Shown in pieces: positions 22,988-28,644 of a DNA stretch of 64,000 nucleotides (within the stretch, counting starts at the first letter, position 1; each line of letters begins with the position of its first letter). A program made the translations under genes and the position numbers. The notes beneath the pieces are model-generated. The model did not search any database. It saw nothing but the letters and a program-made list of their open reading frames with translations, and was not told where the DNA came from. The stretch comes from Escherichia coli (GTDB lineage: Bacteria > Pseudomonadota > Gammaproteobacteria > Enterobacterales > Enterobacteriaceae), in NCBI RefSeq assembly GCF_045037415.1, contig NZ_CP173438.1, one strand, 5' to 3'.

Positions 22988-23302
22988 ATGTCAGCGATAC
23001 AGGGGATTGAAGGGGTTATCAGCCAGTTACAGGCTACGGCGATGAGTGCGCGTGCGCAGGAATCACTGCCGCAACCGACCATTAGTTTTGCCGGGCAGCT
23101 GCACGCCGCGCTCGATCGCATAAGCGATACACAAACAGCCGCCCGCACGCAGGCAGAAAAATTCACCCTCGGTGAACCCGGCGTGGCGCTAAACGATGTG
23201 ATGACCGATATGCAAAAAGCCTCAGTTTCTATGCAAATGGGGATTCAGGTGCGTAATAAGCTGGTGGCGGCGTATCAGGAAGTGATGTCCATGCAGGTGT
23301 AG
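22988..23302 (+). CDS. fliE: Flagellar hook-basal body protein FliE
   Basis: 104 aa starting [18 protein letters not shown]; divergent from fliF. Confidence 0.95.
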
Positions 23303-23645
23303 GTTGTGTAACCTGTTGACTATGCTTGTTTAATTATATCCGATCCCACAGCGTGGGGCATGGATGGGCAAACTCACTCAATTTCTGGTTTAAAATGGAT
23401 ACCTGATCCTGGTTGTTTTCTGCCATCCACGATCCGTAAACGCGATAACATGTTTTGTCTTCGCTTTGCTCCCAGGAAGAGTGAACTCTTTCGTTAGCCT
23501 GGGGTTCCTTCTGATCATTATTGTTCCTGCCTTTATCTCTTGCCACGCCAGAGCCCCCTGGATACACATACACCAGGATGAAAACAGTGAGTTGTGTTCA
23601 AACTGTAGTACAATTCTCTCCAGTATGAACAGGAAAGAATATGCT

Positions 23646-23978
23646 ATGAACCCTTATATTTATCTTGGTGGCGCAATACTTGCAGAGGTCATTGGTACAA
23701 CCTTAATGAAGTTTTCAGAGGGGTTTACACGGTTATGGCCCTCTGTTGGCACAATTATTTGCTATTGTGCATCATTCTGGTTATTAGCTCAGACGCTGGC
23801 TTATATACCTACAGGGATTGCTTATGCTATCTGGTCAGGAGTCGGTATCGTTCTGATTAGTTTGCTTTCCTGGGGATTTTTTGGTCAACGACTGGACCTG
23901 CCAGCTATCATAGGCATGATGTTGATTTGTGCCGGTGTGTTAGTCATTAACTTGTTGTCACGAAGTGCACCGCATTAA
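23646..23978 (+). CDS. emrE: Small multidrug resistance (SMR) efflux protein EmrE
   Basis: 110 aa, four TM helices, MNPYIYLGGAILAEVIGTTLMKFSEGF...; essential Glu in TM1. Confidence 0.9.
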   Translation: MNPYIYLGGAILAEVIGTTLMKFSEGFTRLWPSVGTIICYCASFWLLAQTLAYIPTGIAYAIWSGVGIVLISLLSWGFFGQRLDLPAIIGMMLICAGVLVINLLSRSAPH

Positions 23979-24146
23979 AAAATAATTATCCTTGAGATAA
24001 CAGGAATCTGATTTGTGCATATTATGGCTAATGTTCGGGGCACCTTTATAATTATGATTGCATTTGCGCGATCATTGCGCCTTTATGCATAATGAGATCA
24101 AGGCACATCAAATAAAATAACGATAGGTCACAACAATGAGGTTTTT

Positions 24147-24698
24147 ATGAAAAAACTTATCGTTTCAAGTGTATTGGCATTCATAACATTTTCTGCGCAG
24201 GCCGCAGCATTTCAGGTCACTAGTAATGAAATAAAAACAGGAGAGCAACTTACAACGTCTCATGTATTTTCTGGATTTGGGTGTGAAGGTGGTAATACAT
24301 CGCCCTCATTAACCTGGTCTGGTGCTCCTGAAGGCACCAAAAGCTTTGCCGTAACTGTGTATGATCCAGATGCTCCTACAGGCAGTGGATGGTGGCACTG
24401 GACTGTTGCTAATATTCCAGCAACTGTAACATATTTGCCCGCTGATGCAGGAAGACGTGATGGTACAAAACTTCCGACTGGTGCTGTTCAAGGCCGAAAT
24501 GATTTTGGTTATGCAGGATTTGGTGGAGCATGTCCTCCCAAAGGAGATAAACCCCATCATTACCAGTTTAAAGTATGGGCTCTAAAAACTGATAAAATTC
24601 CTGTGGATTCTAATTCCAGCGGAGCGTTAGTTGGTTATATGCTTAATGCCAATAAAATTGCAACCGCTGAGATAACACCAGTTTATGAGATAAAGTAG
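24147..24698 (+). CDS. ybcL: Periplasmic PEBP/RKIP-family protein YbcL
   Basis: Signal peptide MKKLIVSSVLAFITFSAQA; PEBP-like motifs (DPDAP, GWWHW). Confidence 0.85.
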   Translation: MKKLIVSSVLAFITFSAQAAAFQVTSNEIKTGEQLTTSHVFSGFGCEGGNTSPSLTWSGAPEGTKSFAVTVYDPDAPTGSGWWHWTVANIPATVTYLPADAGRRDGTKLPTGAVQGRNDFGYAGFGGACPPKGDKPHHYQFKVWALKTDKIPVDSNSSGALVGYMLNANKIATAEITPVYEIK

Positions 24699-24707
24699 GG
24701 TAAGAGT

Positions 24708-25505
24708 ATGCTGGCAAAAGATAAGACTAACCTAAAGATTGAAGAAATACGGATGCATAAACATCATGAGATTCACAGGGTTAAGCCTCTTATGCCAGCT
24801 TTATGTCGTATCCGTCAGGGAAAAAAAGTTATCAATTGGGAGACGCATAGTCTAACTGTTGATAATAATCAGATAATATTATTTCCCTGTGGATATGAAT
24901 TTTATATTGCGAATTATCCAGAAGCAGGTCTTTATCTTGCAGAAATGCTTTGTTATCCCATTGATCTAATTGAAAAGTTTCAAAAATTTTATGCGATAAC
25001 TGATCAAATTCGTAACACGACAGGTTTCTGCTTACCTCAGAACCCCGAGTTAATATATTGTTGGGAGCAACTAAAAACATCTATTTCCCGAGGCTTCTCA
25101 ACGCAAATTCAGGAACACTTAGCAATGGGCGTTCTACTTTCATTAGGAGCACATCATGTTAATTGTTTACTTTTATCAGATAGTAAACAATCATTAATAA
25201 GTCGTTGTTATAACCTAATGCTATCCGAACCTGGAACAAAATGGACAGCAAACAAGGTAGCGAGATATCTCTACATTTCTGTTTCCACATTGCATCGCCG
25301 TCTGGCAAGCGAGGGAGTAAGTTTTCAAAGTATATTGGACGACGTGAGGTTAAATAATGCGTTGTCTGCTATACAAACGACAGTAAAACCCATCAGCGAG
25401 ATTGCCAGGGAAAATGGTTACAAGTGTCCTTCTCGTTTTACTGAAAGGTTCCATAATCGTTTTAAGATAACACCAAGAGAGCTAAGAAAAGCGTCCAGAG
25501 AGTAA
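24708..25505 (+). CDS. ybcM: AraC-family transcriptional regulator YbcM
   Basis: C-terminal AraC-type HTH; follows ybcL as in the DLP12 prophage. Confidence 0.8.
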
Positions 25506-25829
25506 AAGTATTTTATGAAGGAGCAACAGCATCGATTTTTATTTTGGAAAATAAATACGGCATACTCAACCTATTGGAGTCTGAACAATCCGGTGACTTC
25601 TGCGCTAATCGGGGACGTTTCTAAGCACATATAATTGATACTATCTTCCTCCATCACAATTTCAGAAATGCACGTGTGATTTTTTTGCATCCGGCGTTTG
25701 GACTATGTGGAGCTCAAGAGTGGGAAAGTTACAAGAGGTTGAGGGGATAATTAAAGGGATGCTTATGACATTAGATATCCGGTTAGGTACGGATATCGTT
25801 GTTATTAAATCTAGTTGATACGTTAAGAT

Positions 25830-26186
25830 GCAGCTACTGACAAAATAGCCAGGACTCCACAAAACGCCTTTGTCGTAATACCTGACTGCAATATCTGGTC
25901 GATCTCGTCGCAGTAACCTACTCGATACGCCTTTGAGGCTGTTTACCAGACTGGATATCGCCAGTTTGGGAGGATAGTTAATTAACAAATGGACGTGATC
26001 TGGTCCGCCATCCATTTCAACCCGTTCAGCTTCAAAATCAGCACATACATTTGAAAAGTAAGTGCGTAGTTTTTCTGTCGCGTCATGGTCAAAAATCTGA
26101 CGTCGGTATTTAGTAACGAAGACCAGGTGAACATGCTTCAGGAAAACACAATGCCTTCCGCGTCGGATATCGGTTTCTTTTTTCAT
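25830..26186 (-). pseudogene. tnpA: IS200/IS605 Y1 transposase TnpA, C-terminal region apparently replaced
   Basis: MKKETDIRRGRHCVFLKHVHLVFVTKYRRQIF...HVHLL (HuH motif) ...GYFVSSC; the ORF then continues into unrelated sequence, so the C-terminal catalytic-Tyr region seems missing. Confidence 0.6.
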
Positions 26187-26208
26187 AGGCCAAAGTATGA
26201 TTTGGCCC

Positions 26209-26493
26209 ATGAAACGACTACAGGCATTCAAATTCCGGTTAAGACCAGGTGGTCAACAGGAGCGTGGAATGAGGCGCTTCGCAGGCGCATGTCGTTTCGT
26301 TTTCAATCGTGCTCTGGCGCTTCAGAATGAGAATCATGAGGCCGGTAATAAATACATCCCTTACGGGAAAATGGCTTCCTGGTTGGTTGAGTGGAAAAAT
26401 GCCACTGAAACGCAATGGCTTAAAGATTCGCCCTCACAGCCATTGCAACAGTCACTGAAAGACCCTGAGCGGGCTTACAAAAACTTCTTCCGG
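26209..26493 (+). pseudogene. tnpB: TnpB (IS605 OrfB), N-terminal ~95-aa fragment only
   Basis: MKRLQAFKFRLRPGGQQERGMRRFAGACRFVFNRALA... typical TnpB N-terminus; RuvC-like and Zn-finger regions absent. Confidence 0.65.
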
Positions 26494-26917
26494 CTTCGTC
26501 ACCACGCTCAAACGGTGTGCTACCTATCGCGGCTATAAAAACAGCTTGTCCATCAGCACGATAGATAAAATAAGGCTGCTTTTTGTCGCCTTCTTTTTTC
26601 CACTCAAACCAGCCATCGGCAAAACAGATTGCCCGACCATGTTGCCAGAGCGGTTTAAACATGTGACTGGTTGCGGCAGTTTCTACGCGGGCGTTAATCA
26701 GCGGCGGTTTATCCCACCATCCGGGAGCATATCCCCAGAAAACCGGATCCAGATGAAGGTGTTCATCACGTTCACTGAGCAGAAGGACTTTGGTTCCCGG
26801 CGCGACGTTGTATCTGCCAATAGGTTCGGGATCGTAGGGAATATCGCGTTCAATATCTTCCGCGAGAAACGCGAGGTAATCTTCACGCGTTTGGGATTGG
26901 GCAAAGCGTCCACACAT
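26491..26917 (-). pseudogene. yedK: SRAP-domain protein YedK (abasic-site processing), 3'-truncated at the IS junction
   Basis: N-terminus MCGRFAQSQTREDYLAFLAEDIERDIPYDPEPIGRYNVAPG... with catalytic Cys2; homology ends after about 142 residues, then a short unrelated tail. Confidence 0.7.
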
Positions 26918-27025
26918 AGAAACCTCCTGAGAGCACACTGAAAAGAATAGGAGAGAGGGCGGGTAAAATCTATGTGATAGAGAGGTAACGATGTTCCCGC
27001 TGTGGGCCACAGCGGGAATGAGGGA

Positions 27026-27259
27026 TTACTTCTGAATTAAATAACGAATGGTCGGCCCGTCTTGCTGAATATCCAGCACCGTATAGCCGTGATTACGCGC
27101 ATCCAGTGGAATATTATTGATCGACTGCGGACAGTCGCTCACCACTTCCAGGATCTCCCCTTTTTTTAACTGCGGCATCGCCTCAAGGGTTGCGACTGCC
27201 GGATAAGGGCAGGGTTCACCCACCATATCAAGACGGTAATCAGGAACGATATTTTTCAT
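27026..27259 (-). CDS. yedF: TusA-like sulfurtransferase YedF
   Basis: 77 aa, CPxP motif (GEPCPYP). Confidence 0.9.
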   Translation of the reverse strand: MKNIVPDYRLDMVGEPCPYPAVATLEAMPQLKKGEILEVVSDCPQSINNIPLDARNHGYTVLDIQQDGPTIRYLIQK

Positions 27260-28461
27260 GCGATCTCCTTAGCAGTCTGCGGTGCCGCACGGCGGAAGAA
27301 GCGTTTTTCCCAGCCAATAATCAACATTAGAGCAGCAAACAACAGCAAATATGTCACCAGCAGGCCGCCCATCGGGCCAAAGGTTTTCAGCAGGTTGATT
27401 TTGTCCCAGTCGGTGGCCAGCGCCGGAGCGAAATCATCCCAGTAGTACGCCAGAATCGTTGAGCCGATCACGTTGCCCAGACCGACCCACCAGTAGTGCA
27501 CCTGGCCTTCTACCGCGCGGTACATCCAGCCGGTTTCGCAGCCGCCTGCCAGCACGATGCCAAAACCAAACAGTAAACCACCAATTACCGCGTTTGGTCC
27601 CGCCCACATGATTTTGGGTTCAACGCCTAACTGTACGTAACTGAAGATCCCGATGGCACTTACCGCCATACCGATAATGATTGCTTTCGCCATATGGGTA
27701 CGTCCGGTGATCCACATATCGCGGAACGCCGAAGTAAAGCAGATTTGCGCACGTTCAATCAGTAAACCAAAGCCGACGCCAAACAGCATTGCCAGCCCCA
27801 GTTTGGGCTGGTTCATCGCCGTCAGCAGCGCCCAGCCCAGCATGCCGAAAAAGACCAGCATCCCGAGACGAAAACGACGCCGCGCCTGATCCGGTTTTTG
27901 CGTCAACGGTGAGGCAGCAGAAACTTTCTGCATTTTCACGGGAATACGGAAGATGGGCAGAAGGGTAAAGCGCGCGCCAAACCATGAACCAATGGCAGTG
28001 GCGATGGCAAAGAACCAGGCGTGCAGCGAGAACTGTGGAATTCCGGTAAAGAACGCCGCCAGGTTACAGCCCATTGCCAGACGTGCGCCAAAACCGGCGA
28101 TAATACCGCCAATGATGGCCTGCATAATGCGGATACGGCTGCGCGGCATGCGCAGTTTGACATTGTTGGCCCACAGCGCTGCGGCAAAACAGCCGCCAAA
28201 CATACCGAGGATCATCATTCCGTCGATGCGGGTTAATGGCGATCCTTCCAGATGGATAATTTTAAAATAACCCCACTCTTCAGCATGGACGCCGAACAAC
28301 TGCAGGAGCTGACCGCCCCAACGGGTAAATTCACCCGTGACTGCCCAAAAGGTGCCAGTGATGCCAAAATAGTAAGTGGAGAGAATACCCGCCGCGATGA
28401 CCGCGGGGATGGGCGCCCAGAATTTAATCAACCAGGCGTGTTTGAATTGCTGCCATGACAT
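27256..28461 (-). CDS. yedE: Inner membrane selenium/sulfur-compound transporter YedE
   Basis: 401-aa polytopic membrane protein overlapping yedF. Confidence 0.9.
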   Translation of the reverse strand: MSWQQFKHAWLIKFWAPIPAVIAAGILSTYYFGITGTFWAVTGEFTRWGGQLLQLFGVHAEEWGYFKIIHLEGSPLTRIDGMMILGMFGGCFAAALWANNVKLRMPRSRIRIMQAIIGGIIAGFGARLAMGCNLAAFFTGIPQFSLHAWFFAIATAIGSWFGARFTLLPIFRIPVKMQKVSAASPLTQKPDQARRRFRLGMLVFFGMLGWALLTAMNQPKLGLAMLFGVGFGLLIERAQICFTSAFRDMWITGRTHMAKAIIIGMAVSAIGIFSYVQLGVEPKIMWAGPNAVIGGLLFGFGIVLAGGCETGWMYRAVEGQVHYWWVGLGNVIGSTILAYYWDDFAPALATDWDKINLLKTFGPMGGLLVTYLLLFAALMLIIGWEKRFFRRAAPQTAKEIA

Positions 28462-28644
28462 GAATGTAGCCTCTGAACTCAGAAGGTTTGAAACAAGAGT
28501 CGCGAATCATACACCATGCAAATTTATTTTCGGGGTAATAATTCACAAAAATAATGGTTAGATCAAATTTCTCTCTGAACCTGGAAAGGCTGGCGACATC
28601 AGGGCTTTAATGCCACAATCCTCTTTTCTTCTCATGCAGGACGA

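Follow-up and report, generated by a model that had tools for sequence, protein, structure and literature searches.

An internal remnant of IS609 between two deletion junctions at the yedK locus of Escherichia coli

How does an insertion sequence come to lie beside yedK in Escherichia coli with part of each of its genes missing, and is anything that remains of it still at work? The locus sits within a 64-kb stretch of E. coli chromosomal DNA, which we analyzed as a whole and call the window. What occupies window 25830..26493 is very likely an inert piece from the interior of the insertion sequence IS609, left behind by two deletions of a full copy at yedK. This is ordinary insertion-sequence decay, genomic debris of a kind already known and already annotated. 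Its modest interest lies in what the decay has done to a neighboring gene and to the databases, and in the lineage marker that it provides.

What is left of IS609

Among the catalogued insertion sequences of E. coli, IS609 is represented in K-12 by a tnpA pseudogene and insQ between ydcL and ydcO. BLASTN comparison of window 25300-27100 with the full IS609 copy of E. coli O157:H7 SS17 (L002) gave a single, ungapped match of 664 bp at 95.8% identity, occupying 25830..26493 of the window and 3001..3664 of L002 and making the fragment a nucleotide-level homolog of the reference element. Against the K-12 copy, nucleotide identity is 95.0%. All that the fragment keeps is element positions 117-780 of ~1747 bp, and DNA and protein searches of the 64-kb window found no further IS609 similarity beyond chance 13-22-mers. 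The initial annotation, made from the letters alone, had recognized an IS200/IS605 remnant here; the coordinates it gave are the exact limits of the BLASTN match, and the element can now be named as IS609.

Full IS609 is ~1747 bp long and, as seen in the O157 copy (L002), carries tnpA (143 aa, minus strand) and tnpB (402 aa, plus strand). In the fragment the genes stand in this order too, their divergent starts again 7 bp apart. On the minus strand, 25830..26201 is the tnpA remnant (IS609 codons 1-124 of 143, from BLASTN, translation and tblastn). The spacer, 26202..26208, comes from IS609 by alignment to the full element, and 26209..26493 on the plus strand is the tnpB remnant (codons 1-95 of 402, from Pfam, translation and alignment). 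What the fragment does not have, set against IS609, is the left end (LE), the right end (RE), the catalytic tyrosine of TnpA and 307 of the 402 residues of TnpB.

The window's TnpA tracks that of IS609 as far as ...WSPGYFVSSC (C124), after which the minus-strand translation reads ILTYQLDL... in place of GGAPISAIRQYIEQQQTPG. The initial annotation had put the loss of family likeness after ...GYFVSSC, ahead of the catalytic Tyr, and this is where the break falls. Residues 1-124 are covered at 91% identity by tblastn, and Pfam Y1_Tnp matches profile positions 2-106 of 121 only. A Y1 HUH transposase has both an HUH motif and a catalytic tyrosine. The motif is kept (HVH, residues 69-71), but the C-terminal 19 residues are gone and Tyr135 with them. 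In IS608 TnpA the catalytic residue is Tyr127. Tyr135 of full-length IS609 TnpA aligns with it (structure 2A6M, E = 7e-19). At the other end of the gene, the original ATG has mutated to ATC, so that the frame first offers another ATG at 26186.

The plus-strand frame of TnpB holds IS609 residues 1-95 of 402, the N-terminal stub that had been proposed, and Pfam finds HTH_OrfB_IS605 only. Because the alignment of full-length IS609 TnpB with its ISDra2 counterpart (8H1J/8EXA; residues 3-376, E = 1e-53) runs from end to end, a stub that keeps residues 1-95 is without everything from RuvC onward; neither the RuvC fold nor the zinc ribbon (OrfB_Zn_ribbon) is present. RefSeq labels the stub a pseudogene. 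In ISDra2 and IS608 the guide RNA spans the 3' end of tnpB and RE, and we place that of IS609 by analogy. The 3' 969 bp of IS609 are deleted in the window, and the guide (omega/re) RNA region is missing with them.

The ends of IS609 were defined from three independent full-length insertions, in O157 (TetR-family gene), in K-12 (ydcL/ydcO) and at the yedK locus (E-93 and 13E0780), together with the empty site of NCTC9022. The LE hairpin of the full element is CCCCGTCCTTCAGGGCGGGG; the RE hairpin is CACGTCCTTCAGGGCGTG, followed by ...GGATGTCAA. Neither has a match anywhere in the 64-kb window with up to three mismatches allowed, which is the search for terminal hairpins that the initial annotation had proposed. 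The fragment falls short of the left end by 116 bp and of the right end by 969 bp, both element–host boundaries are deleted, and the subterminal hairpins of a functional IS200/IS605 element are absent. Judged from its sequence, the fragment should be able neither to excise nor to insert, whether autonomously or with a transposase supplied in trans, the latter because both terminal hairpins are gone. The earlier view that the element is unlikely to be mobile therefore stands. With catalytic Tyr, LE and RE hairpins, TnpB nuclease domains and guide-RNA region all lost, this is an IS609-derived remnant, short of a working IS200/IS605 element in each of these respects.

The pentanucleotide TTATC lies immediately 5' of LE at all three independent insertions (L002 2880-2884, L003 2880-2884 and L004 5873-5877) and is found at the empty site (L005 7094-7098). 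Going by three sites only, it is probably the target motif of IS609 and hence the expected target-adjacent motif of its TnpB. With its HUH motif, its Tyr, its subterminal hairpins and its insertion 3' of a fixed short motif (TTATC), full IS609 resembles IS608 of Helicobacter pylori and ISDra2 of Deinococcus radiodurans. The window fragment, in contrast, is without every component needed for peel-and-paste transposition and for RNA-guided cleavage by TnpB.

Nor is the K-12 copy of IS609 active, but it keeps both ends and a full-length tnpB (insQ), all of which the window copy lacks. In mutation-accumulation lines this single copy is reported never to have moved (PMC5009759), an immobility consistent with the internal stop in K-12 tnpA. 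That same stop (GR*LRR) occurs at two loci: between ydcL and ydcO in K-12 DH1 (L003 2947-3372) and at yedK (L004 5940-6365, L006 5980-6405). Neither the window remnant nor the O157 copy shares it; both read a sense codon at this position. The presence of the stop at two loci suggests that a defective copy transposed with help in trans or that gene conversion took place between copies.

Two deletion junctions and the history of the locus

Three states of the locus can be compared. In state A, that of NCTC9022 (L005), ybcM is followed by a spacer, an ompC-like porin gene and an intact yedK, without IS609; the porin gene occupies L005 5502-6584. In state B, that of E-93 (L004) and 13E0780 (L006), the porin has been lost through a 1222-bp deletion, a full IS609 follows TTATC at the stop codon of an intact yedK. 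The window is state C. It has the porin-deletion junction of state B, ...ACGTTAA|GATGCAGCTAC, at 25826|25827, common to the full-IS609 genomes L004 and L006, and eleven bases on it jumps into tnpA. Comparison with L004, L005 and L006 identifies those 11 bp (25827..25837, minus strand) as a relic of the 5' end of the ompC-like porin gene.

Comparison with L004 places the left deletion junction at GCAGCTAC (25830..25837). This is an 8-bp perfect repeat within a 22-bp imperfect repeat, and it is present in both the 5' relic of the porin gene and the 3' region of tnpA. What is missing relative to L004 comes to 669 bp, made up of 553 bp of spacer and 116 bp of IS609 including LE. The right junction, placed in the same way, lies at a CGG microhomology (26491..26493) that adjoins an imperfect 11-bp repeat (AAAACTTCTTC / AAAACTCCTTC). 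Here IS609 ...AAAAACTTCTTCC is joined to yedK GGCTTCG..., and 1211 bp are missing relative to L004 (a size set by exact string matching): 969 bp of IS609 including RE and 242 bp of the 3' end of yedK. When the 669 and 1211 bp are cut out of the L004 sequence in silico, the result recreates window 25506-26917, in register and with no gaps, over 1412 bp at 96.5% identity. The anatomy of the fragment, its junctions and its sequence relationships are seen directly.

The history that we reconstruct from them would begin with an ancestral locus reading ybcM, spacer, ompC-like porin, yedK. Next would come the loss of the porin gene (1222 bp) and the arrival of a full IS609 3' of the TTATC that lies at the stop codon of yedK. 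A 669-bp deletion between the two copies of GCAGCTAC would have cost the element its left end, hairpin included, and tnpA its final 19 codons, among them that of the catalytic Tyr. With a 1211-bp deletion at CGG would have gone tnpB codons 96-402, the hairpin-bearing right end and the final 80 codons of yedK. Replication slippage and illegitimate recombination typically leave junctions at short repeats. Either may have been the mechanism of the deletions, and the order of events given here is likewise our reading of the junctions. The old insertion followed by deletion that the initial annotation had proposed is borne out and becomes two separate deletions, of 669 and 1211 bp, at a short repeat and a microhomology.

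Two qualifications belong here. Because the window no longer has the right end of the element, we equate the original insertion point here with that of state B on grounds of parsimony and of the shared porin junction. And the IS609 of state B has the internal stop in tnpA, which is absent from the window remnant, so the state-B genomes that we sampled are cousins of the window's lineage and not its direct ancestors.

That difference in the stop codon is one reason to ask whether the fragment might have arrived already truncated, by recombination or horizontal transfer together with the emrE–ybcL–ybcM island, and be unrelated to the full copy at yedK. Divergence is another: the remnant stands ~4-5% from all sampled full-length copies, against 1.4-2.7% among those copies. 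Yet the porin-deletion junction is common to the window and the state-B genomes, the orientation and register are the same, and the window is recovered gap-free from L004 by two simple deletions. The extra divergence also fits a raised rate that extends into the adjacent yedK pseudogene. We therefore regard arrival in a truncated form as very improbable, and return to two deletions of a full copy at yedK.

Distribution and decay of the scar

The scar is widespread. Of 5426 complete E. coli genomes, junction-spanning queries found 1116 with the left junction and 1110 with the right, ST131-type strains among them; the full IS609–yedK junction of state B is present in 668 complete E. coli genomes. 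These junction-specific queries were used in place of a coverage-based count (2071 genomes), which overestimates, nearby pieces being joined and state-B genomes also reaching 80% coverage. Many ST131/O25b:H4-type genomes, SK1144 for example, match window 25500-26700 at 100% identity. AVS0717 (L007), from a more distant lineage, has both junctions identical to those of the window. The two junctions offer a clean, stable lineage marker, which about 1110 of the 5426 genomes carry.

Between the window and L007 the remnant has diverged by 2.4% and the yedK relic by 2.6%, against 0.7% for yedF–yedE. The remnant diverges about 3.5-fold faster than neighboring yedF–yedE, which points to neutral decay. 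Most codon changes in the remnant are non-synonymous; relative to O157, for instance, the truncated tnpA shows 11 non-synonymous and six synonymous changes. A consensus scan of 25450-27100 gave no match to a sigma-70-like promoter. The same kind of scan found four terminator-like sites over this interval against 1.7 expected, a count that is not informative. An Rfam scan of 23000-28500 (E ≤ 1) found nothing in the element and one noise-level match, to Ysr206 at 23933-24199, scoring 18 against a gathering score of 124 bits. The non-synonymous bias, the change of ATG to ATC, the missing promoter match and the empty Rfam result for the element all fit a scar that is old, passed down vertically and decaying neutrally.

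Could the truncated TnpA, its HUH kept and its Tyr lost, or the TnpB stub, or both, have been retained for a function? In this family TnpA is a dimer with composite active sites, known from the IS608 structures, in which the HUH of one subunit pairs with the Tyr of the other. A dominant-negative TnpA partner can accordingly be imagined, as can a regulator that binds DNA hairpins. Both sampled lineages have kept the frame open, and about 20% of complete genomes still carry the remnant. Against this, substitutions are mostly non-synonymous and accumulate about 3.5-fold faster than in the neighbors, the tnpA start codon has been lost, and the promoter scan came up empty; vertical inheritance of a neutral scar is enough to explain the persistence. 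We consider a retained function exceedingly unlikely, and neutral decay remains our reading. There are two more adventurous ideas, and as a pair we give them little credence, though somewhat more. Either the chimeric TnpA' (174-189 aa), which keeps HUH but has its Tyr-bearing helix replaced, might be expressed and poison the TnpA dimers of other IS609 copies, or the linked loss of YedK might have a DNA-repair phenotype that helped the haplotype to spread.

A chimeric reading frame, a shortened yedK and their surroundings

Beyond C124 the tnpA' frame stays open, giving 174-189 aa. The tail of this chimeric ORF (25662..25829, minus strand) is not IS DNA. By comparison with L005 it is read-through into a 324-bp spacer downstream of ybcM, of which 25662-25829 is a part, and this spacer DNA is 98-100% identical in genomes such as NCTC9022 (L005) that have no IS609 at the locus. 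Because the tail matches non-IS spacer in IS609-free genomes, the C terminus of TnpA has been replaced and is not merely divergent. The initial annotation had named a divergent and intact C terminus as the finding that would overturn it; the alignment, once run, traced the tail to the spacer downstream of ybcM.

RefSeq nonetheless lists the chimeric ORF, 25662..26186 on the minus strand, as an intact tnpA of 174 aa (WP_001347174.1, 'IS200/IS605 family transposase'). The counterpart in AVS0717 (L007) has 179 aa (WP_032143406.1). The last ~50 residues of WP_001347174.1 are translated non-IS spacer, and the catalytic Tyr is absent. That the ORF encodes an intact transposase with a divergent C terminus, as the non-pseudo RefSeq/PGAP entry, an open frame of 174-189 aa and a chance Tyr four residues past the break (ILTYQ) might encourage one to think, is scarcely credible, given that the DNA after codon 124 is that of the spacer, that Y1_Tnp ends at profile position 106 of 121, that the segment with the counterpart of IS608 Tyr127 is missing and that both ends on which a transposase would act are absent. 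Alignment of the tail at the DNA level rules it out. The RefSeq call of an intact tnpA is an annotation artifact, propagated across about 1100 genomes, and WP_001347174.1 calls for correction: it is a chimeric, Tyr-less ORF presented as an intact transposase.

The second casualty is yedK. YedK is a SRAP protein that crosslinks to abasic sites. In the window, 26492..26917 on the minus strand is a yedK pseudogene holding codons 1-142 of 222, as judged by Pfam, translation and RefSeq. The 1211-bp right deletion removed codons 143-222, the C-terminal 80 residues, which include His160 of the intact protein. The SRAP domain is incomplete, with Pfam SRAP covering profile positions 1-138 of 214, and RefSeq labels the gene a pseudogene ("missing C-terminus"). 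The relic in AVS0717 (L007) has gained an internal stop. Our literature search on the pseudogenization of yedK in E. coli lineages returned nothing relevant. With yedK a pseudogene in about a fifth of the complete E. coli genomes, the loss is relevant for studies of SRAP/HMCES-type abasic-site repair in such strains.

The neighborhood has a history of its own. In SK1144 the gene order is fliE, emrE, ybcL, ybcM, tnpA, [tnpB pseudogene], [yedK pseudogene], yedF and yedE. The emrE–ybcL–ybcM block lies between fliE and yedK, at about 23646-25505 of the window (ybcL 24147-24698, ybcM 24708-25505). In K-12 the same three genes belong to the DLP12 prophage, and the locus that the block occupies here carries the intG relic in that strain. 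The block looks like a lambdoid prophage relic. In the spacer downstream of ybcM, a consensus scan picked out an inverted repeat with an 8-bp stem (GATATCCG...CGGATATC) and a T-rich tail at window 25774-25797 on the plus strand, which could be the terminator of ybcM.
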